Assembly (NCBI GenBank): GCA_964472745.1
Contig: CAYYNC010000107.1
Span: 1 to 10,637 of the forward strand
Direction: 5' to 3'
DNA length: 10,637 nucleotides
Source: an uncultured Solibacteraceae bacterium
Lineage (GTDB): Bacteria; Acidobacteriota; Terriglobia; Bryobacterales; Bryobacteraceae
The translations under genes and the position numbers were made by a program. Position 1 is the first letter of the stretch, and each line of letters begins with the position of its first letter. Shown in pieces: positions 419 to 10,637 of this stretch. Below the pieces are notes generated by a model that was not told where the DNA came from, did no database searches, and saw only the letters and a program-made list of their open reading frames with translations.

Positions 419-1226
419 TCAAGGAAGCCGTCTTTCAGGCCCCTCTGAAACTGGAAACGGCAAATCCTGCCGCGCGGAGTCGCTCGTGGAAGTTCTCCAG
501 CGCCCACACTCCTTCGCCTGTCCCCGCGTCAACCCCGGCACAGCCTTCGCCACGCCGCCGCTCAGCGGGACCATCGTCACGTTGCCCGGCTTGAACTCGC
601 CGTGCACCACCCCGGCCGCCTGCGCCGCCGCCAGCCCTTGCGCCTGTTGCTCGATCACCGCCAGCGCACGCTCCGCCGGCTGCGGGCCTTCTTCTCTCAT
701 CCGCGCGCGCAGCCTCCGCCCGCGCAGGAGCTCCATCGTCAGCAGCAGCAAAGGCGCGCCCCCCTCTTCCGGCCGGTGCCCGGCGATGTCGTGAATTCGG
801 CAGACATTCGGATGCGTCACCCGCCGCGCCATCTGGATCTCGCGCCGGAATCCCTCGCTCACCGCTTCGCGCTCCCCGACCCCCGTGCGGATCGTCTTCA
901 GCCCGGCAGTCTGCCTCCAGTGGCTGTCCTCGGTCTCGCAGACCTCACCCATCCCCCCGGCCGATGAAACGCAAAACCCTGAACCGTCGCGCCGCCACAT
1001 CCCCCGCCGCGAACCGCGGCTTCTCCCGGCCGGACTCCCCTCCGAACGGAGCCATCGTCAGGTCCATCGATGGGCTCTCGTGCTCCGCCGGCATCCTCTC
1101 CAGGTAGCCCGCCAGCTCGGGCTCGCTCGCGCGCAGCCCGGCCGACAAATCCCTGCGCCCGCTCTCACTCGCGCCCAGCGCCTTGTAAAACGGATCCTTC
1201 AGCCTCTTCCATTCCCGCGGATTCAT
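419..1226 (-). pseudogene. Ser/Thr protein kinase, frameshifted and truncated, with degenerate catalytic motifs
   Basis: The N-terminal segment (ORF 945-1226) ends RFRVLRFIGRGDG*. The kinase segment (ORF 419-1000) continues SSAGGMGEV...LKTIR...HPNV...HGEFKPGN in another frame. The shift falls inside the glycine loop at a GGGGGG run (about 946-960). HRD is replaced by HGE, and the DFG region reads VPG. There is no C-terminal lobe. Pairing with the upstream ECF sigma is typical of ECF43-like STK-associated sigmas. Confidence 0.6.
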
Positions 1227-1785
1227 TCATCGTCCCTCGACCCTTCACGCGCGCTTTCAGCCACGCGCGGGTCACCGCCCGGTCGCGCTTCACCGTCTTC
1301 TCCGAAATGCCCGGCGCCTCGGCGATCTCCGCCGCCTCCAGCCCCGTGAACCAGCGCAGTTCGACAATCCGCGCGCTGCGTGCGTCCATCCGCTCCAACT
1401 GCTCCAGCCATCTCGTTCCAGTGGAGGACCTCGTCCGGCGCGATCGTCTGCGCCGCCGCTTCGTCCGGCGGCTCCACCTGACTCCTGCCCCCGCCGCGCT
1501 TGGCCCGCAGGGTCCGCCGCGCGTGATCCACCAGCACCTGCCGCATCGCCCGCGCCGCCACCGCCGGAAAATGCGTCCGGTCCTTCCAGTCTTTTCGTTT
1601 GTCCCCGCCAGCCGCGGAAACAGCTCGTTGACCAGCGCCGCCGGCTGGAGCGTGTGCTCCCGAGCCTCCCTCCTCATCAGCGCCGCCGCGATCTTGCGCA
1701 GCTCTCCGCACACCAGCGGAAGAACCTCCCCCGCCGCGCTCGCGTCCCCTCTCCGCCACTTCTCCAGCAGCATCGCTACTTCCAT
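1165..1785 (-). pseudogene. ECF-type RNA polymerase sigma factor (TIGR02999/ECF43-like), with two compensating frameshifts
   Basis: Region 2 is in frame A (DEAMEVAMLLEKWRRGD...LPLVCGELRKIAAALMRREAREHTLQPAALVNELFPRLAG). The middle is in frame B (ORF 1223-1876: DRTHFPAVAARAMRQVLVDHARRTLRAKRGGG...). Region 4 is back in frame A (ARSARIVELRWFTGLEAAEIAEAPGISEKTVKRDRAVTRAWLKARV). The likely start is the ATG at 1785-1783, preceded by AGGGA. The 3' end overlaps the kinase start. Confidence 0.65.
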
Positions 1786-2068
1786 CGCTTCGTCCCTGTG
1801 AGCCGTTCGTATTGGACTCGCCCCAAGGCGGATGGCCCATGTCTCTGGATCGCAACCGCTCCTCAACCGGCTGCAATGTTCTCCTGTTGCCAAATCATGC
1901 CGCAAACAAGCGAGTTGGAAGCCTGCGCCGCCCGTTCACCTCTCCTCGAACGCTTGCTCCACGTCTGTCCCGTCCACCGAAGCGATTTGGACCCAGGTGA
2001 CATCAACCATGCCAAAACCTCTCGTCTGACGTTTTCCCCTGCTTAACTGAAGGCTCGGCGGCTCACGT

Positions 2069-2110: not shown

Positions 2111-3946
2111 ATGATGCCGGGCTGTCTTCCCGCAGTCTCCGCGATTGGTGTGTGCCTGCTGACCTGCATCCTGTGGCCATGCCTGGGCCAGACAACTGCT
2201 TCAACCGCCAGACGGTCGAGCTCCTCCAATCCCAAGTGCCAGTTCCTGCGGCAGGAACTCAGGCGGCTTGCCCAAGAGCGCGAAGAAGTGGTCCAGAATT
2301 CACCATTCAGGTCTGTCACAAACCTCGAGCAGCTTGCGGAGGCAGAAGGAACAATCGACTCGCTCGCCCAGTACTTCGCCGATGTGGAACAGCGAATGTC
2401 TCGCGAGCGGATTCTGCGCGACAGGATTTCTTACTGTGATGCCCAGCGGAGTCTGGCCTCCATGGATAGGTTGGAGTCTATCGAGAGGCTGCGCGCTCGA
2501 CAGGTGGACGACGTGCGGGGGCGCTGGCGCGCGATCGCGGGCGAGCCGGACACGCCGGCCGAGGCTGCGGTGGTTGCCCGCATCAACCAGGTCTTTGAAG
2601 AAGAGGGCTTGAACCTTCAACGCGCCGCTGCCGTTGACCACGGATGGGATCCTGAGGTCCGGATGGGATACCCCAACCTGGTCCAGTTGATCCGCGATTC
2701 ACAGCTCGATCCTGAGACCAAGGACAGCTTATCCACTAAGATCGCCTTGATCCGGTTCGAGGAAGCCGGCAGGCTCGCGAATATCTTGGCCGGCATCGAC
2801 AAGGACTCCAGCCTGAACTACGCAATTAAGTTGCGGAATATCTTAGCCCAGAGAGAGACGCTGATGGAACAGGTGCGTCGTGATCGCGCCGCCGCCGAAC
2901 AGAAAGCCGTTAAAGAGCGATGGAGAAACCTGATGTGGACCTATGGACCGCTCGTCTTCGTGGGTTTGGGCGCCCTGGTCGTGGCCTGGGTGTTTCTGAG
3001 TTACGCGCGTGCCAAAGTACATGCTTTCCGAACGGGCAAGAAAAGAGTCCCTTATTGGGGAGGACTTGCGGAATTGATCCTCTGGGAGCCGGGTGAAACG
3101 GTTGTCATCCTCCAAAACAAACGGCTCACTCCGATGGGCGACCCGGGCGGCGGAATGACCTCGATCTCCGCGTGGAGAGGGCAGGAATACAAGGGCCGCA
3201 TCACTTACAAAACGCGGATGTCGATGTGGCGTAGCGGCCCGATCCTCACCAGCGACGGCCTGCAAGTCAGTCTGGCATTTGGGATCTGGTGGAAGATTGT
3301 CGATCCCGGAAGGCACGTCTCGGCGATCGCAGCGGACTACCACCTCGGCTCAGAACATCGCACCGACGAACTCACCGAAGCCGCTGAAGTCTGGATCGAG
3401 CGCTTCGCCGCCAGCACGCTGAGGGAACAGGTGAACATGCTCCCAGCCGAGAGGCTCATTTCGCCATATGTGCAGACCTATATCCAAGTGGCGAATGAAC
3501 GATCAAGCGAAGTCCCTCAGTTCTCCGACGTTCTGCTCACCGCGCGCGCCCAGCTCAGCGAGAAAACCACTGCCTACGGCATTCAGATCGAGCGCCTCGA
3601 AGTGCAGGAGTTGATCCTCCCGCCCGTCTATCAGGAGAAACTGGAAGCGGTGCGCGTCGCCTTCCTGGAACCCTACCAATCCAAGGCGCTGACCGAGGCC
3701 CAGGTCATTGCACTCCGCGGTTTGGCGAGCGTCATCGGTCCGGAGAAGGTCGGCCTGATCGAGATTCTCAAGCACGTCGATCTTTCCAGGGCGACCATGA
3801 ACCCCTTTACCGGCGTTGTTCCCGTCGTGCAGCCAATCTTGAATACAGTGACGGACTCCACTCTCAAAGGCTTGGATGCCCCGGTAGCGCCCGCTGCAAG
3901 TCTAAACCCAGGTGAGGGTGAACCGGGCTCCGAGAAAGGCGCTTGA
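2111..3946 (+). CDS. SPFH/band-7 (stomatin/flotillin-like) domain membrane protein with a long N-terminal coiled-coil-rich domain
   Basis: This is a 611-aa ORF ending in TGA at 3944-3946. A single strong transmembrane helix (LMWTYGPLVFVGLGALVVAWVFLSYA) lies at about aa 277-300. The C-terminal ~300 aa match the SPFH pattern (LQVSLAFGIWWKIVDPGRHVSAIAADY...; AYGIQIERLEVQELILPPVYQEKLEAV). The N-terminal ~270 aa are heptad-like and rich in R, E and L. The start is uncertain because the first 30 aa are hydrophobic and Cys-rich. Confidence 0.7.
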   Translation: MMPGCLPAVSAIGVCLLTCILWPCLGQTTASTARRSSSSNPKCQFLRQELRRLAQEREEVVQNSPFRSVTNLEQLAEAEGTIDSLAQYFADVEQRMSRERILRDRISYCDAQRSLASMDRLESIERLRARQVDDVRGRWRAIAGEPDTPAEAAVVARINQVFEEEGLNLQRAAAVDHGWDPEVRMGYPNLVQLIRDSQLDPETKDSLSTKIALIRFEEAGRLANILAGIDKDSSLNYAIKLRNILAQRETLMEQVRRDRAAAEQKAVKERWRNLMWTYGPLVFVGLGALVVAWVFLSYARAKVHAFRTGKKRVPYWGGLAELILWEPGETVVILQNKRLTPMGDPGGGMTSISAWRGQEYKGRITYKTRMSMWRSGPILTSDGLQVSLAFGIWWKIVDPGRHVSAIAADYHLGSEHRTDELTEAAEVWIERFAASTLREQVNMLPAERLISPYVQTYIQVANERSSEVPQFSDVLLTARAQLSEKTTAYGIQIERLEVQELILPPVYQEKLEAVRVAFLEPYQSKALTEAQVIALRGLASVIGPEKVGLIEILKHVDLSRATMNPFTGVVPVVQPILNTVTDSTLKGLDAPVAPAASLNPGEGEPGSEKGA

Positions 3947-4322: not shown

Positions 4323-4937
4323 CTATGCTGGCCCCCCCGCGCCCCGCACGATCGCCTCCAGCGCAATCCGCGGGCAGATCGCGCCCCGGATGTAATCCAG
4401 CAAACTCAAGCCGGCCCGCCGGATCCGCTTCTCAACCGCCCCGTCCAAACATCGCCCCTCCTCATCGAAGACCTTCTGAACGTTGGCCACCGAAACAGCG
4501 CCCGGCAAAACGATCGCCCCCACATGCAGGCACACCCCGGCCAGCGACTCCAGCGACTTGATCGCCCCGATCTGCCCCTGCGCCACCCCCACCAGCGCCA
4601 CCGGTTTTCCCGCCAGCACCGAAGGGAACCCCAGATTCTCGATCACCAGCTTGATCACGCTCGAAAACGACCCGTGATACTCGGGCGTGGCCAGGACTAC
4701 GCCGGTCGCGCGCCTCACCTTCTCCCGCAGCCCCTTCGAATCCGGCAGCTCGAGATTCACCCCCGGCGGCGGCAACTGCAATCCCGCCGGATCGATCAGC
4801 TCCACCCCAACGCCCTCCTGCCGCTCGAGCTCATCCACCACCAGCCGCAGCGCCTTCAGCGTGTAACTCCCTGGCCTCACCGCGCCCGCGATGGCCACGA
4901 TCTGGATTCGTTCCGAACTCTTGTCGTCCATACGCAT
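4323..4937 (-). CDS. NAD(P)H-dependent FMN reductase (SsuE/YieF/ArsH-like flavodoxin-fold oxidoreductase)
   Basis: N-terminal motif MDDKSSERIQIVAIAGAVRPGSYTLKAL matches the IVAIxGSxRxGSxN nucleotide-binding motif. TPEYHGSFSSVIKLVIENLG... matches the TPEYNGS signature. Stop is TAG (complement of 4323-4325). The start is at 4937 or 4931; the ORF track extends to 5012. Confidence 0.8.
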   Translation of the reverse strand: MRMDDKSSERIQIVAIAGAVRPGSYTLKALRLVVDELERQEGVGVELIDPAGLQLPPPGVNLELPDSKGLREKVRRATGVVLATPEYHGSFSSVIKLVIENLGFPSVLAGKPVALVGVAQGQIGAIKSLESLAGVCLHVGAIVLPGAVSVANVQKVFDEEGRCLDGAVEKRIRRAGLSLLDYIRGAICPRIALEAIVRGAGGPA

Positions 4938-5117
4938 TAGGATGTGCGTCCACGCCCTGCCGCGCCGGAAACCTTTCCTCTGCACTGCCGTCTTCAGGCC
5001 CGCTTCGCACATTCCGGGAGGATTGCATTGGCGCGGCTGGCCGCCGCTGATAGACTTTCATCGCAGCTTCGCGCTCGCCGGGATGGCGCCCATAACTGTA
5101 GCAAAGCGAGGCAAGTG

Positions 5118-5662: not shown

Positions 5663-6115
5663 TCAACCTGACGTTCGCGCTTGGGGCTCCTTGGCGCGGA
5701 AAGGGTCCGCGATGCTCACATCGCGAACCTTCCGGCCGTGTTGCAGGTCTTCGCTGAGCAGCCTGTCGCAGCCGCCCCGGATTGCGGCGCTGACGATCGG
5801 TGCATCCCACCACGACAAGGAATCGTGGCGGTGAAGCTCCAGCGCGGTATCGAGCAGTTCGCGGCTGGATTGGACACGCCAAAGACGTTCGATCAGCTTT
5901 CGGTAGATCGAAGTTGCTTCCTCCGCGCTGAGCGGGACCGCCGCTTTGCGCAACACGACGTTGAACCATTCCTGCACCACTCCATCGCTCAGACATCCAT
6001 CGCCCGTTTCGTGGGCCGTCGCAATCCACTTCTGTGCCGCGGATTATCTCCCAGGGTCGGTTGGATCAATCGCGTACACCAGTAGGTTGGTGTCGAGGAA
6101 GAACCTGCCGCTCAT
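5663..6115 (-). pseudogene. vapC: VapC PIN-domain toxin with in-frame TAA nonsense codon at codon 24
   Basis: N-terminus is MSGRFFLDTNLLVYAIDPTDPGR, followed by TAA (complement of 6044-6046). The same frame continues SAAQKWIATAHETGDGCLSDGVVQEWFNVVLRKAAVPLSAEEA...LSWWDAPIVSAAIRGGCDRLLSEDLQHGRKVRDVSIADPF. The family is recognisable throughout. Reinitiation at the internal GTG would lose the first catalytic Asp. Confidence 0.75.
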
Positions 6116-6422: not shown

Positions 6423-6706
6423 ATGCCGAAAACCCGCAAGACTCACCAGCCGAGCCTGAAGGCGAAGGCCGCCGTGGTGGCGATCCGCGGCGTTGGGACA
6501 ACCGCGGAGATCGCGAAAATCTTTGACGTGCATCCCAATCTGGTCGCCAACTGGAAGCGCAGGCGCCGGAGCGGCTGCCGGCGATCTTGGCCGGCGCTCA
6601 GGCTGCGCGCCAGCATTCCGGCCCCGAGAAGGACGCCCTCTACCAGCAGATCGGGAGGCTGAAAGTGGAGCTCGACTGTCTCAAAAGAGTCGGCTGGCAG
6701 GATTAA
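6423..6706 (+). pseudogene. IS3-family transposase OrfA, internally frameshifted
   Basis: The N-terminus MPKTRKTHQPSLKAKAAVVAIRGVGTTAEIAKIFDVHPNLVANWKRR (HTH) is in frame 0. The leucine-zipper part ...ERLPAILAGAQAARQHSGPEKDALYQQIGRLKVELDCLKRVGWQD* is in frame 2 and ends with TAA at 6704-6706. Frame 0 stops at 6660-6662. Confidence 0.65.
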
Positions 6707-7562
6707 GGACAAACGCCGGTGGGCCGATCCGTTCCATCCCCAGCTCAGCATCCAGAGCCAGTGCCGGTTGCCGGGGCTGTCCCGCTCCAGCTACTACTCC
6801 CAGCCACGGGCGGAAAGCGGGGAAACGCTGGCGCTGCCGCGCCGGCTGGACGAACTCTACATGGAACGGCCGTTCTTCGGCAGCCGCCGCACGGCGGCGA
6901 TGCTCGGCGTGAACCGCAAGCCGATGCAGCGGCTGATGCGCCTGGCCGGCATCGAGGCGCTGTGGTGGAAGCCGCGGCTCAGCCGGCCGCGGCCCTGTCG
7001 CGAGATCCGTCCTTGCTTGCTGCGCGATGTGGCGATCGAGCGGCCCAACCAGGTCTGGGCGCGCGACATCACCTCTGTGCCGATGCGCCGGGGCTTTCTC
7101 TACCTGGAGGCGGTGATGGACCGGTTCAGCCGCTACGTGCTGAGTTGGGAGTTGTCGGCGACCCTGGACACCGGCTTCTGCCTGGGGGCATTGGCAGCCG
7201 CCCTGCGCCAGGGCGCGCCGGAGAGTTTCAACACCGGCCAGGGCTGGCAATTCACTGCGGCCGATTTCACCGGCGCCGTGCAGCAGCGCCAGATCCGGAT
7301 CAGTATGGACGGCCGCGGCCGCTGGCTGGACAATGTTTTCGAGCGCTTGTGGCGCTCGGTGAAGTAGGAGCTGATCGAGCCGGGGGACTTCGCCGACGGG
7401 CATGAGCTGTGGATGGCGCTGGAGAATTGTTTCCGGTTCTACAGCCACAGCCGGCGGCACCAGGCGCTCGGCTGCCGGAGGCCGGCCGAGGTGTTCGCTT
7501 CGCGCGGCATGCAGCCGGTGGTTGCCCGAAATTGGGGCTCCGCCCCAAACCCCGGGATGTAG
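6663..7562 (+). pseudogene. IS3-family transposase OrfB (integrase core), with in-frame TAG and a mutated DDE motif
   Basis: SKESAGRIKDKRRWADPFHPQLSIQSQCRLPGLSRSSYY...FGSRRTAAMLGVNRKPMQRLMRLAGIEAL...VWARDITSVPMRRGFLYLEAVMDRFSRYVLSWEL...FNTGQGWQFTAADF...LDNVFERLWRSVK*ELIEPGDFADGHELWMALENCFRFYSHSRRHQALGCRRPAEVF. TAG at 7366-7368 replaces the conserved Tyr of the KYE motif. The HSDqG motif reads NTGQG, so the second catalytic Asp is lost. OrfB is in the same frame as the OrfA N-terminus. Confidence 0.7.
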
Positions 7563-7761
7563 CGCTTTCGGCCAGACTGATTGCTTCGCTGTTGAGGAAG
7601 CATTCGGGCCGCCGGACAATCGAGGAGCCTCGCAGGAGGACAGGGCAACGCAGGGATGCGACCCGGGCGCCTGGCGAGGTCCGGACTGACAGGGCGGTAG
7701 CAAGACCGCCCTGCGAACCCGCCGCGATCCACTTAAGGAACGGGCGAAAACTCTCCAGTCT

Positions 7762-8448
7762 TTGGGGTCCCCCTCACCTTCTCTCGCCCCGCGCCTCAAA
7801 GCGACATTCCGTTTTTGCGCTCAGCCCGGCGATGACGTCAACAATCCCGTCCTCGATGAGTTGGTCGCCCGGCTCGTCAAGCTCAGTCGTCCGGCTGGCC
7901 AAGCGCCTTACATCTCGCTCTGGCGCCCTGAGCGCTGGACAGAAGAGATGATGCGCGACGCCGGCGGCTGCGGGGCCGCCATCGGGCGGCAGGCCGCATC
8001 CGGCAACCCCATCGTAATCGGCGGCCGCGCTCCCGTTTGGGCCTACCTGTCCGCCCTCCGCTGTGCGCTCCGCAAAGACCGCGCCGCGCGCGTGTTCTTC
8101 TTCGACCCGCGCCAGCCGCAGGTGCTCGTCGAGATTCCCTGCTCGCCGCAGCCGGGAGAATTCCCTCCCAATGTACTGGCTCTGTGTTGGGACAGGCTGC
8201 CGGACGGCATGCATCGCCTCACCTTCAACCACACCGCCACCGGCAAGTACCTGCCCCCCGCCGTGGCCCAGAAGCTCGCCGCCGCGCCGTGGGCGCTCCC
8301 GGTTCAAGTCCCCCAGGCTGTCGGCCTCAGCGGTCCCTCGCCTTTGTGGCTGTTCGGCGTTTACGCCCGCTGGCTACACAACGCCGGGGTGAAGCGGATC
8401 TCCTCATGGGACATGACAATGAAGAAGTTCGTGCCCGTCTGGACCTGA
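7762..8448 (+). CDS. Tandem double Csx3-like protein (two Csx3/Crn3-like repeats in one chain); start uncertain (TTG at 7762)
   Basis: Repeat 1 is GNPIVIGGRAPVWAYLSALRCALRKDRAARVFFFDPRQPQVLVEI. Repeat 2 is GLSGPSPLWLFGVYARWLHNAGVKRISSWDMTMKKFVPVW. Both match the Csx3 core remembered from AfCsx3 (vISGRGPIWLhcfLAHky.ht.fVAVYDPRLGavVV) and the downstream standalone csx3. This rests on recalled family knowledge, not a database search. Confidence 0.5.
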   Translation: MGSPSPSLAPRLKATFRFCAQPGDDVNNPVLDELVARLVKLSRPAGQAPYISLWRPERWTEEMMRDAGGCGAAIGRQAASGNPIVIGGRAPVWAYLSALRCALRKDRAARVFFFDPRQPQVLVEIPCSPQPGEFPPNVLALCWDRLPDGMHRLTFNHTATGKYLPPAVAQKLAAAPWALPVQVPQAVGLSGPSPLWLFGVYARWLHNAGVKRISSWDMTMKKFVPVWT

Positions 8449-8480
8449 AAAGGGTCCAGCCGCTGTCATATCCAAAGGCC

Positions 8481-8792
8481 ATGCTCCAGCACTTCCACGT
8501 CACCATCCTCGATCAAGCCGGCGGGGTGATCACCCTCCAGATCGGCTTCGGCGATCCGGCCGCCAACACCCTCCTCGTCCCCGCAGCCGTCGCCGCCCTC
8601 GGCGCCCTGAACCTCAAAGGCGGCCGCGGCATCCGCTTCACCGGCCCGGCGAGTCTCCCGGTCGCCATGGCGCTCGCCCACGCCGTCGCCCACCTGTACG
8701 GCTATGTCGCCTGTTACGATCCCAAGCTCGAAGGCTTCGTCGTCGCCATCTCCCACGATCCTGCGGTCCGCCCCGGCCAGTTGCTCAGATAG
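8481..8792 (+). CDS. csx3: Csx3/Crn3-like CRISPR ancillary protein (candidate cA4 ring nuclease), ~103 aa
   Basis: MLQHFHVTILDQAGGVITLQIGFGDP...NLKGGRGIRFTGPASLPVAMALAHAVAHLYGYVACYDPKLEGFVVAISHD aligns along the full length of a ~100-aa Csx3, with the conserved His and the YDP.LG Asp. The ATG at 8481 is preceded by AAAGG. An alternative ATG at 8406 would overlap the upstream gene. Stop is TAG at 8790-8792. Confidence 0.5.
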   Translation: MLQHFHVTILDQAGGVITLQIGFGDPAANTLLVPAAVAALGALNLKGGRGIRFTGPASLPVAMALAHAVAHLYGYVACYDPKLEGFVVAISHDPAVRPGQLLR

Positions 8793-8798
8793 GCCGCC

Positions 8799-9815
8799 TC
8801 AATCCAGCACCAGCACCCGGACCTTCCCCAGCCCGAAGGTCGCCTTCTGCCCGAAATGCAGCACCTCGGCCGCCCGCGCGAACGGCATCCCCGGGTCGAG
8901 CTCCCCTGCCAGATCGATATAACCCACCACGCCGTCGAATTCCAGCCGTTTCTCCTGCCGGAATGTGTACCTCGGCAGGCGGTAGCGGAAAAGCCGGCGC
9001 CCTGCCAGTTCGTAGTTCAGCTTCGGAGCCTCCACCCAGGGCAGCCTTGGCCGGCCGGTGAGGCAGTTGTAGACTTGCACCGCCCGCGCCAGGCAGTGTT
9101 CAAAAAAGCAGGCCGCCAGATCGCTTGGGTTGAAGGTGATCCCCTGGCCCAGGTTGACCAGCGCCGGTGTCAGGAATGCGATCCGGACCACCCTGGCCCG
9201 CTCCTGTTCGCACGGCAGCCTGGCCAGCCCGGGCTGTTGCGCCGGAATCCGCGGCAGCCGGCTGTCGTATAACGCCCGCCCCGCAGCGTCGCGCGCGCCG
9301 CGCAGCCGGAAGCGCACTCCCCCCAGTTGCAGGCCGTAGCGTGCGATCGCAGCGACGATGCCGGCCAGTGTGATCGACAGCGGGCCGACCAAGCGGAGTC
9401 CCGGCCGCAGCAGCGCCCCTCTCTGCACCCTGAGAAGGTGATCGTTTTCCAGTGTCGGCGTGCGCTCCCCGCGCAGCGAAGGACCGCTGCGATAGGGCGG
9501 GTGCACGGGTCCCCCCATGGCGATCTCCTCCAGCGCCTCCGTCAGCGGCGCCTCCACGATCAAGGGCTTCGGCGCATTGGCCCCGCTCGAGGTTCGCGAC
9601 CGCTCGAAGATCGCAAAGTACTTGCAGGTGTCCGGCCGCTGGCAGGTGTCCCCGCACTGCGCCGCCTCGCACAGCGCCGGCCGCATCAGGCGCCCCACAG
9701 CCCCCCTGAGACTCGAGCCCAGATACGGCGGCAGGTCCCCGGCCTCCGCCGCTTCCAGCTCGATCCATGCTTCCCGGTAGGTGATCTCTTCCAAAAACTG
9801 CGTCATCTGCGCCAT
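8799..9815 (-). CDS. cas6: Cas6-family CRISPR endoribonuclease with an inserted four-Cys (zinc-finger-like) cluster
   Basis: The N-terminus ...DLPPYLGSSLRGAVGRLM matches the Cas6 LP.nYgs.LhGallsll motif. The C-terminal glycine-rich loop HFGQKATFGLGKVRVLVLD matches GhGxxxxxGhG. Inserted between is CEAAQCGDTCQRPDTCKYF. It lies adjacent to cas2. Stop is TGA (complement of 8799-8801). Confidence 0.6.
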   Translation of the reverse strand: MAQMTQFLEEITYREAWIELEAAEAGDLPPYLGSSLRGAVGRLMRPALCEAAQCGDTCQRPDTCKYFAIFERSRTSSGANAPKPLIVEAPLTEALEEIAMGGPVHPPYRSGPSLRGERTPTLENDHLLRVQRGALLRPGLRLVGPLSITLAGIVAAIARYGLQLGGVRFRLRGARDAAGRALYDSRLPRIPAQQPGLARLPCEQERARVVRIAFLTPALVNLGQGITFNPSDLAACFFEHCLARAVQVYNCLTGRPRLPWVEAPKLNYELAGRRLFRYRLPRYTFRQEKRLEFDGVVGYIDLAGELDPGMPFARAAEVLHFGQKATFGLGKVRVLVLD

Positions 9816-9828
9816 GATATCCCTTGCG

Positions 9829-10092
9829 ATGCATTTTGTAATCGCCTACGACATCGAAAGCGACCGCCGCCGCAACAAGGTGATGTCCACGTTGAAGGAC
9901 TTCGGCCTTCGTGTGCAGTTCAGCGTCTTCGAGTGTGAGCTCGACGCTGCCCGCCTGTGGAAGCTCCGCGCGCGCCTGGAGCGCCTTATCGACCGCCGTT
10001 GCGACCGGCTCCATATCTACCCTCTTTGCGATGCCTGCTATTTCCGGGCCGAGAATCTCGGTCACGAGTCCGGCGATCTGGAGGGCGTGTGA
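9829..10092 (+). CDS. cas2: CRISPR-associated endoribonuclease Cas2
   Basis: MHFVIAYDIESDRRRNKVMSTLKDFGLRVQFSVFECELDAARLWKLRARLERLIDRRCDRLHIYPLC matches the Cas2 signature (YD.....RR.kv.k.l..yG.RvQ.SVFEC.l......l...l...i....D.vriY.l). ATG at 9829 (alternative 9814). Stop is TGA at 10090-10092. Confidence 0.8.
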   Translation: MHFVIAYDIESDRRRNKVMSTLKDFGLRVQFSVFECELDAARLWKLRARLERLIDRRCDRLHIYPLCDACYFRAENLGHESGDLEGV

Positions 10093-10148
10093 ATCCTGCC
10101 CGGTTCTCGTCCTGCTCCCAGACCCTCGGCCGGCCGTTTCGGTCCTTT

Positions 10149-10528
10149 CCGGTTTGCGAAACTTGGGGCCTTGCGCTCATTCGGCGCAACTCAAACATTT
10201 TCCAGCCCCTTACGCGGCCGATGGCAGGATCGTCCCAAAGCCTCGTTTTTACGCAAACCGCCCTCCATGGCCGTTCTTTCCGAGGTTTGCGAAGATGGGC
10301 GCGATTCGCGCTGCAACCGGGCCAATGGAATCAAGGGTTTGGGACCTGGCCGGAGGCCCGGATTTCGCAAACCTCCCCATGACGAAGAATCGCGATCCGG
10401 TTTGCGAAGCGCTATCTGATGGACAAGTGGTTGATTTCGTGGAACTTGACTATGCTAACCCTCGTTCAACCGGCGGTTTCGACGCGGCTGAACCGGCCGG
10501 TTTGCGAAACTCGTGGCCCTTGGCGCAA
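10149..10528. repeat. Dispersed CCGGTTTGCGAAAC-type repeats in both orientations in the noncoding region downstream of cas2 (candidate leader or regulatory boxes); not a regular CRISPR array
   Basis: Forward copies are at 10149 (ccggtttgcgaaac), 10284 (gaggtttgcgaaga), 10397 (ccggtttgcgaagc), 10497 (ccggtttgcgaaac) and a partial at 10474 (cggtttcgacgcg). Reverse-complement copies are at 10359 (ggatttcgcaaacc) and 10245 (gtttttacgcaaaccg). The copies at 10149-10178 and 10497-10528 share about 30 nt (CCGGTTTGCGAAACTtGgGGCCcTTGgCGC). Spacings are irregular (135, 75, 38, 77, 23). Confidence 0.55.
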
Positions 10529-10637
10529 GCCGGGGGCGATCAACAACTTAGCAATTCCGGCACAGGGCGCTTGCGGAGCTAAGCCATTGATGGCACAATT
10601 GAATCACCCGGCCGGGTCGCAAAGGTGCGATTGATAC

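Follow-up and report, generated by a model that had tools for sequence, protein, structure and literature searches.

How should two Csx3-like domains in one short reading frame be understood, and is the protein that carries them an enzyme in its own right? The question is raised by a 10,637-nt stretch of contig CAYYNC010000107.1 from an uncultured Solibacteraceae bacterium, here called the window, in which an open reading frame (ORF) of 228 amino acids at 7762-8448 is followed by one of 103 amino acids at 8481-8792. An earlier note on this DNA, made from the sequence alone, took the first for a free-standing double Csx3 that would act as a ring nuclease, and the second for a canonical Csx3. 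Both ORFs exist where that note placed them, the first does contain two Csx3-like domains and the second is a genuine Csx3. The present analysis suggests, as the probable explanation overall, that the 228-residue ORF is what remains of a truncated accessory gene encoding an NTPase followed by two Csx3 domains, that the product of the intact gene is of a sensor type, and that the locus itself has decayed. The window corresponds to positions 73-10709 of our locus L008 and its sequence is found unchanged in a 34.5-kb JGI contig, 18.5 kb of which was examined.

Each half of the 228-residue ORF is independently related to Csx3. PF09620 (Cas_csx3) is the sole Pfam family matched by the ORF (E = 1.6e-6; 28.3 bits, the cutoff being 21), and it is matched in two stretches; among PADLOC models the ORF matches plain Csx3 models only, and against NCBIfam TIGR02579 it reaches 23.5 bits, under the 55.4-bit equivalog cutoff. 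Domain 1 (7792-8145 (+), ORF residues 11-128) includes an inserted helical segment, with the Pfam and PADLOC Csx3 matches at ORF residues 83-124, and domain 2 (8146-8448 (+)) comprises residues 129-228 and the stop codon. The best Pfam Csx3 match lies in half 1 of the window ORF and of its closest homologue, P0002, and in half 2 of the homologues P0010 and P0006; when the halves of 25 homologues were scanned separately, PF09620 alone was matched by half 1 in 5 of them and by half 2 in 4. HMMER was run exhaustively against 1.84 billion representatives with a profile built on both domains of the module; only 57 proteins scored E<=1e-3, and those in the weak tail of this list (whole-library E between 2e-5 and 7e-4) are genuine PF09620 proteins, with Pfam E-values of 5e-8 to 1e-37. 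These were reached through both parts of the profile, the half-1 region (positions 56-120) matching P0253 (98 amino acids) and P0251, and the half-2 region (positions 128-217) matching P0243, P0244, P0245, P0247 and P0248. In addition, the single Csx3 domain of a Nostoc protein annotated as Crn3 aligns to either half of P0002. The core motif by which the earlier note had recognized the repeats, GxxPxW...DPxxxxFVxV, describes them only approximately, the second part reading DPRQPQVLVEI in repeat 1 and DMTMKKFVPV in repeat 2. Searches of PDB chain sequences with the 228-residue ORF and with a profile of each half did not match Csx3 or its structurally characterized representative AfCsx3, so that this relationship is detected only by structure comparison and by the broad Pfam and PADLOC models.

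Comparison with its homologues shows that the ORF is not a complete gene. Searches gave 15 and later 66 clusters of homologues, none of which carries a functional annotation and all of whose named members belong to the Acidobacteriota (Bryobacterales, Candidatus Angelobacter, Acidobacteriia and Thermoanaerobaculia). The ~50 relatives are mostly 370-420 amino acids long, with most of the shorter ones being fragments from short contigs; they align to the whole window ORF at 28-59% identity and possess ~160 extra N-terminal residues. In ~48 full-length homologues the N terminus is a P-loop NTPase, with a Walker A motif GPANAGKT (VVGPANAGKTTLL) and an LLDFGG/DFGG motif. In P0002, residues 141-379 align to window positions 7741-8445 (tblastn, 56% identity, E = 3e-84), and residues 1-140 match nowhere in the window in any frame. 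As tblastn searches with ten N-terminal NTPase domains returned only noise, a displaced NTPase-encoding 5' part, whether at another place in the window or in a different frame, was also rejected.

The position of the break can be narrowed further. Directly 5' of the truncated gene lies a decayed insertion sequence (IS) of the IS3 family (6423-7562 (+)), comprising orfA (helix-turn-helix, 6423-6662) and orfB (rve integrase core, 6768-7367; Pfam rve, E = 1.1e-15); an in-frame stop codon interrupts orfB at 7365-7367, and from there its frame is open to 7560. The element matches IS3-like transposases of the ISPpu29 family by blastn; a search for its inverted-repeat ends gave nothing convincing, nor did one for another copy of it farther downstream in L008. 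The reading frame of the Csx3 gene is closed upstream by an in-frame stop at ~7684-7686, and homology to the full-length relatives starts at ~7741-7792; from this start and the end of the IS coding remnant at 7560, the junction is placed between ~7563 and ~7790. The first β-strand of Csx3 domain 1 corresponds to residues 155-158 in an AlphaFold2 (AF2) model of full-length P0002, for which the window has no clear homology, so that this strand too has been lost. What remains (7741-8448 (+); listed as an ORF at 7762-8448 with a TTG start) is roughly the C-terminal 60% of a protein family of ~380 residues. Calls of its start differ, JGI giving 228 amino acids from the TTG at 7762, and NCBI and Logan 166 amino acids from an ATG at 7948. 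No convincing Shine-Dalgarno sequence was found near the TTG, and a σ70 promoter scan of 7400-8900 returned no site, a result that is uninformative for Acidobacteriota. The retained coding sequence deviates at 3 of 36 highly conserved positions; since the family median is 1 and the maximum 5, this provides no sequence evidence for or against pseudogene decay. Lacking its first strand and an evident start, the surviving sensor module is most likely nonfunctional. Collectively, these alignments identify the 228-residue ORF as the IS-truncated 3' part of a three-domain gene, and the free-standing double Csx3 of the earlier note gives way to a natural family with an N-terminal NTPase that has been lost here beside a decayed IS3 element.

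Gene order in related loci supports the truncation. In the closest relatives, L013, L014 and L015, a full-length gene is followed by a 103-residue Csx3 and then Cas6, which is the window arrangement with the 5' part intact, and in L014 and L015, where upstream sequence is visible, a repeat-associated mysterious protein (RAMP) gene lies directly upstream of the full-length gene. More broadly, intact relatives occur in or beside type III-D loci (L001-L004, L010-L012 and L014-L015), whose modules encode a Cas10 of ~520-540 residues without an HD domain, Csx10, Csx19 and fused Cas7 RAMPs, as identified by the family models TIGR02674 (Csx10), TIGR03984 (Csx19), PF22335 (Cas10, palm2) and TIGR03986. 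The loci that extend far enough, L010-L012, also encode a reverse transcriptase (RT)-Cas1, Cas2, Cas6 and a stand-alone Csx3, and the Csx3-Cas6-Cas2 trio is common to the window and the relatives. In type III-D systems HD domains are rare, and these systems are thought to act via cyclic oligoadenylate (cOA) signaling (PMC11229360). Of the four acidobacterial Cas10 proteins aligned, three have the GGDD motif; it is found in L011 and L012, as well as in the cyanobacterial loci L005 and L006. The Cas10 of L001, the locus that carries P0010, has AGED in place of GGDD (8171-9790) and is possibly a weakened or altered cyclase.

Other genes beside the fusion gene were considered as partners. The small "genes" downstream of it in L003 (5180-5924), L002 (11191-11547) and L010 (11396-12064) were rejected because they encode repeated FNRTFANRPGEP peptides, that is, they are translated CRISPR arrays. 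Two neighbors are candidate effectors: a TIR_2-domain protein of 740 residues beside the fusion gene in L011 (1-713), and a protein of 662 residues with NACHT and metallophosphoesterase domains in L012 (8016-10004), whose gene lies immediately upstream of, and overlaps, the fusion gene.

The fold of the tandem module has a precedent among proteins that sense cyclic oligonucleotides. The AF2 model of the window ORF (predicted local distance difference test, 87.2; predicted template modeling score, 0.79) shows a two-lobed module in which the Csx3 fold is present, domain 2 forming a compact β-β-α-β-α-β-β unit; the model of full-length P0002 reaches 94.6 and 0.91, respectively. The best structural matches of the module are SAVED domains (Cap5, CalpL, TIR-SAVED and Cap4) and AfCsx3. 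The top Foldseek matches are nearly all SAVED proteins, with 8fm1 and 6vm6 at modest E-values of ~1e-3, a probability of 0.99 and template modeling scores of 0.42-0.46. SAVED domains are pseudodimers of CARF-like domains, and the earlier proposal of a single-chain pseudodimer is thereby structurally supported: the models support an arrangement in which the two Csx3 domains form a SAVED-like pseudodimer within one chain.

Whether such a pseudodimer would cut its ligand or only hold it can be approached through the residues that it has kept. The Mn-dependent "H60 face" of AfCsx3 is made up of H57, H60 and H80, histidines that are invariant in Csx3 and either essential or important for AfCsx3 activity; cyclic tetra-adenylate (cA4) is bound mainly by the "D69 face," to which D69, R71 and the G45 loop contribute. 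Each active site joins the D69 face from one dimer with the H60 face from its neighbor, and the H60A and D69A mutants, each inactive alone, regain activity when mixed (PMC7371418). With residue roles taken from that work, conservation was examined in 49 members of the tandem family and in a clade of 109 stand-alone Csx3 proteins. The ligand face is retained in both domains. Domain 1 has the motifs GG-x-AP-x-W (G87, G88, P91 and W93, equivalent to the G45 loop) and F-D-P-K/R (D115, P116 and K/R117), in which D115 corresponds to D69 (46 of 49 members) and K/R117 to R71 (42 of 49). In domain 2, G191, P194, W196, R203 and D217 are conserved, with G191 (48 of 49), P194 and W196 corresponding to the G45 loop and D217 (48 of 49) to D69; the R71 equivalent is R219 in 26 of 49 members and a threonine in the window copy. 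The histidine face is a different matter. The domain 1 equivalents of H57, H60 and H80 are R100 (arginine in 30 members, histidine in 10), L103 and E124, respectively, and domain 2 has no conserved histidines, its H57 equivalent being the invariant R203 and its H60 equivalent the variable position 206, with no residue assigned to H80. The window ORF does have a histidine, H206, at this last position, and the earlier note had stated that repeat 2 keeps both histidine and aspartate; this is true of the single sequence, and family-wide it holds for the aspartate but not for the histidine, which only 3 of the 49 have.

With Mn-site histidines missing from either half, the tandem module is probably not a Csx3-type ring nuclease, and the retention of ligand-face motifs alongside this loss is read as indicating a cOA sensor coupled to an NTPase switch. 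The pattern thus suggests that the module binds ligand without AfCsx3-type cutting, and of the two functions we somewhat favor sensor over nuclease.

One related protein distributes these residues in another way. P0243 (426 residues) has the order Csx3-Csx3-NTPase, a third arrangement among the fusions; its first Csx3 keeps HxxH and has a glutamate at the D69 position, and its second keeps D-P-R and an H80-like histidine and lacks HxxH. As aligned, P0243 is a naturally occurring case of the two AfCsx3 half-sites being divided over fused domains.

The stand-alone Csx3 that follows the truncated gene (8481-8792 (+), ATG start, 103 amino acids) matches PF09620 (E = 8.6e-9) and the PADLOC Csx3 model (E = 3e-14), and scores 29.9 bits against TIGR02579, under the 55.4-bit cutoff. 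It has at least 162 homologues, and PF09620 is matched by 120 of the 120 listed. In its clade G55, H67, H71, D80, P81 and K82 are invariant and H92 is present in 108 of 109 members; alignment to AfCsx3 indicates that the HxxxH spacing of its histidines is a variant form of the AfCsx3 catalytic set, which as aligned is complete. Since these histidine and aspartate residues are kept, the protein is likely a ring nuclease that resets the signal. Two further small genes were assessed as Csx3 and not accepted: a 104-residue gene beside the fusion gene in L011 (clade HMM E = 2.3), and the 104-residue gene at 11262-11576 of L012, with a marginal clade HMM value (E = 0.033) and no Pfam match. The latter comes immediately after the fusion gene, in the place that Csx3 takes in the closest relatives, and may encode a very diverged small sensor or nuclease.

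Taken together, these observations are consistent with the following model. The intact protein would combine an N-terminal P-loop NTPase of the SIMIBI class (MinD/ParA-like) with two diverged Csx3 domains arranged as a SAVED-like pseudodimer. On target recognition, Cas10 would synthesize cOA, and the tandem Csx3 module would bind it, most likely as cA4, on its pseudosymmetric D69-like face. SIMIBI NTPases are typically nucleotide-dependent dimers. Binding of cOA may change the oligomeric or nucleotide state of the NTPase, possibly through head-to-tail stacking or dimerization, and the stand-alone Csx3 would then remove the signal. Head-to-tail stacking upon ligand binding is typical of Csx3 and SAVED proteins (PMC7371418, PMC11229360). 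In the window, a rearrangement associated with the IS3 element would have removed the NTPase domain, the native start, the promoter and the whole effector module.

Several points weigh against this explanation. The loss of the histidines leaves room for a different catalytic arrangement or for catalysis in trans with the stand-alone Csx3. Deletion of slr7080, which encodes a cyanobacterial Csx3-AAA fusion, produced no interference phenotype (PMC6546367, PMC9676260). HHalign comparisons of narrow family profiles are weak, with P = 2e-4 to 3e-3 for domain 1 against domain 2, and P = 0.003 (domain 1) and P = 0.08 (domain 2) against the acidobacterial Csx3 clade; the weak similarity of the two halves is itself taken to indicate that the duplication is old. 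The remnant shows no obvious decay and so could still be expressed and useful. Finally, the ends of the IS remain unmapped, and the element is implicated in the truncation by adjacency only.

The alternative that survives best, although we regard it as unlikely, is a hetero-oligomeric nuclease or timer, in which cA4 would be held by the D69-like face of the tandem module and a dimer of the stand-alone Csx3 would dock head to tail, supply the H60 face, cleave the ligand and so turn the NTPase off; by extension, the truncated ORF could retain a partner or sponge function. Restoration of activity across two faces by mixing the H60A and D69A mutants of AfCsx3 (PMC7371418) provides a precedent, and the distribution of residues fits, D-face motifs being kept in the tandem module and histidines in the stand-alone Csx3, as does the split of HxxH and D-P-R/H80 between the two Csx3 domains of P0243. 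The two genes are, moreover, adjacent in the window and its closest relatives and co-occur in other loci, and the remnant ORF has no clear sequence decay. This alternative is, however, purely inferential. The stand-alone Csx3 has a D80/K82 face of its own and can presumably act alone, the genes lie 5-7 kb apart in L010 and L011, and the remnant is missing the first β-strand of domain 1, a convincing start and a recognizable promoter.

Still less probable is the role envisaged in the earlier note, in which the double Csx3, a pseudodimer within one chain and with asymmetric active sites, would itself be a ring nuclease and degrade cA4. Both halves are indeed Csx3 homologues packed as a pseudodimer, D69 and R71 of AfCsx3 have counterparts in domain 1 (D115 and K/R117) and domain 2 (D217), H206 of the window sequence sits at the H60-equivalent position, and the presence of a viral SAVED ring nuclease (9r8s) among the top structural matches indicates that pseudodimeric sensors can be nucleases. 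Nevertheless, equivalents of H57, H60 and H80, residues that are key in AfCsx3 (PMC7371418), are conserved in neither half, and H206 is a feature of only those few family members noted above. The NTPase domain of the natural protein suggests an effector or sensor role, and the canonical Csx3 with an intact catalytic set in the same loci would make a second nuclease redundant. The weakest alternative, that the Csx3 resemblance is spurious and reflects chance motifs in a GC-rich ORF that is unrelated or noncoding, draws on the low individual Pfam domain scores, the TIGR02579 score below cutoff and the failure of either half's profile to find AfCsx3 in the PDB by sequence, but it is refuted by ~50 full-length homologues with conserved columns, confident AF2 models, true PF09620 proteins in the exhaustive-search tail for both halves and the CRISPR context conserved among the relatives, and we give it almost no weight.

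The surroundings of the truncated gene are those of a decayed locus. Downstream of the stand-alone Csx3, a Cas6-family endoribonuclease of 338 residues is encoded at 8799-9815 (-), with AF_1859_N and CRISPR_Cas6 domains (Pfam PF10040, E = 2.7e-7; precomputed matches PF27225 and PF10040), and a Cas2 of 87 residues by the JGI and Logan calls at 9829-10092 (+) (Pfam PF09827, E = 1.4e-23). There is no cas1 beside cas2. In related loci cas1 takes the form of reverse transcriptase-Cas1 fusions or of a reverse transcriptase plus Cas1 (L011 14560-16878; L012 12919-16549), and its absence from the window therefore suggests that the adaptation module has been eroded here too; the reverse transcriptase of L012 carries AEP/TOTE-like domains. 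The window ends within the first repeat of a CRISPR array (10601-10637 (+)), whose 38-nt repeat GAATCACCCGGCCGGGTCGCAAAGGTGCGATTGATACG is cut by the window end. A repeat search of 9700-10637 found chance repeats only, the true array beginning in the last 37 nt; in L008 the array has four good copies of the repeat and one degenerate terminal copy at a spacing of 71-73 nt (10673-10998), and beyond it lie a second rve-type IS and then β-oxidation genes. A nearby type III system, which the earlier note had expected, did not materialize when the flanks were inspected: no cas10 or RAMP gene is present in the 18.5 kb examined of L008, which covers 7.8 kb upstream and ~8.4 kb downstream, csx10, csx19 and Cas7-family RAMP genes are absent from the window and the examined part of L008, and type III-D modules are seen only beside the intact relatives. 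The CRISPR-Cas genes at the locus are thus limited to the truncated gene, csx3, cas6, cas2 and a short array, and the locus is an IS-flanked, decayed CRISPR relic.

The rest of the window, the GC content of which is ~57-71% in 500-nt windows, holds genes of other kinds. A group of flanking genes at 419-1905 (-), 2111-3946 (+) and 4323-5012 (-) comprises a short Ser/Thr-kinase-like ORF and an extracytoplasmic function (ECF) σ-factor, both known from precomputed Pfam matches of the contig, a 611-residue SPFH/Band-7 protein and an NADPH-dependent flavin mononucleotide (FMN) reductase, which appear to have no relation to CRISPR. Between the FMN reductase gene and the IS lies a PIN-domain (VapC-like) ORF at 5663-5980 (-), with a weak Pfam match (E = 0.008); small ORFs near it could be its antitoxin.

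Fusions of an NTPase to Csx3 have been listed as type III accessory genes since 2018-2019. Shah et al. (2019) catalogued cluster 35, "Csx3-AAA," which is cyanobacterial and includes Slr7080, and cluster 67, "AAA-Csx3" (C3a67), which has the opposite domain order and is exemplified by Caur_2269, and proposed that the ATPase of both is under allosteric cOA control via Csx3 (PMC6546367); later reviews give no function for these fusions (PMC8284326, PMC12409355, PMC9676260). The window ORF is a truncated member of this known, uncharacterized accessory family, in the form of an NTPase with two Csx3 domains. The statement in the earlier note that a single-chain double Csx3 is undescribed thus applies only in part: NTPase-Csx3 fusions are on record (clusters 35 and 67; PADLOC PDLC01059), and neither a tandem Csx3 nor a SAVED-like Csx3 pseudodimer is mentioned in the literature searched (the supplements of Makarova et al. 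2020, for example, lay outside its scope). What is new is that the "Csx3" part of the NTPase-first form appears to consist of two diverged Csx3 domains in a SAVED-like pseudodimer, that this module is devoid of the catalytic histidines family-wide, and that the "AAA" part is a predicted switch NTPase of the MinD/ParA-like (SIMIBI) type. With these three features combined, the family is a concrete candidate for an effector or regulator of a new kind that senses cOA, and a division of labor with the stand-alone Csx3 ring nuclease is suggested. The window gene provides no evidence for an active type III system or for a free-standing double-Csx3 enzyme, and the analysis is of value chiefly for how it reinterprets the structure of the AAA-Csx3 family rather than for the relic copy.

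Among known systems, C3a67 (PADLOC PDLC01059) is closest in design, being likewise a type III accessory gene in which an N-terminal P-loop NTPase precedes a Csx3 region. Its member P0247 matches the model over positions 4-377 (E = 3e-88), has two Csx3 stretches and aligns end to end with P0002 at 23% identity over 417 columns (E = 4e-13). P0002, in contrast, matches the C3a67 model only with its NTPase part (positions 5-212 of 382, E = 2.7e-20), the tandem Csx3 part of the acidobacterial family being too diverged to score, and the window ORF, which is without the NTPase, has no match at E<=0.01. As published, C3a67 has one Csx3 domain and an "AAA" ATPase and belongs to subtypes (A),B according to Shah et al. 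(PMC6546367), whereas the acidobacterial family has a tandem Csx3 and a SIMIBI-class NTPase and belongs to III-D. The NTPase domains of P0002, C3a67 and the Csx3-AAA proteins are homologous at ~30% identity, and by these comparisons C3a67 and the acidobacterial family are divergent sisters in a broader set of Csx3-NTPase fusions. It is tempting, but at present speculative, to suppose that the Csx3 part of every NTPase-first fusion, in C3a67 and the acidobacterial family alike, goes back to an ancient tandem duplication, independent of SAVED, that gave rise to a noncatalytic pseudodimeric cOA receptor gating a MinD/ParA-like NTPase, with the stand-alone Csx3 docking on the ligand-loaded receptor to supply the histidine half-site in trans as a built-in timer. 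If this is true, these proteins would be effectors or regulators of a new, cOA-controlled class.

The cyanobacterial Csx3-AAA genes, such as Nostoc crn3 (L005 5623-6576), have a homologous NTPase (P0002 residues 5-164 against L005 residues 127-287, 30% identity, E = 1e-18), and their PADLOC model, PDLC01045, is matched by the NTPase part of P0002 (E = 2.7e-32). They too are type III-D genes, with csx19 nearby, joined by TIGR03985 in the Nostoc loci shown, and are sometimes found beside a stand-alone Csx3. Their domain order, however, is the reverse of that in the acidobacterial family, Csx3 preceding the NTPase, and the proteins of L005 and L006 have a single canonical Csx3 domain, which keeps its histidines in L005 and only one of them in L006; relative to this arrangement, P0243 represents an intermediate form. 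AfCsx3 (PDB 3WZH, 3WZI and 6YUD; PF09620, TIGR02579) shares its fold and the core motifs G-x-x-P-x-W and D-P-K/R with each half of the tandem module, but it is a homodimer of ~110-residue chains, forms head-to-tail stacks around cA4 and depends on H57, H60, H80 and Mn2+ (PMC7371418), whereas the tandem module consists of two diverged copies in one chain that have lost the histidines and, in the intact relatives, are joined to an NTPase. SAVED proteins (Cap4, Cap5, CalpL, TIR-SAVED, SAVED-CHAT and the viral SAVED ring nuclease) are also single-chain pseudodimers of two CARF-like α/β domains, and they sense cyclic oligonucleotides and control a fused effector, the same design that we propose for the tandem Csx3. 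Yet neither the window ORF nor its homologues have a Pfam SAVED match (E<=1 and E<=0.1), and the tandem halves are recognizably Csx3. The tandem module would thus have an independent, parallel origin or be a very distant relative of SAVED.

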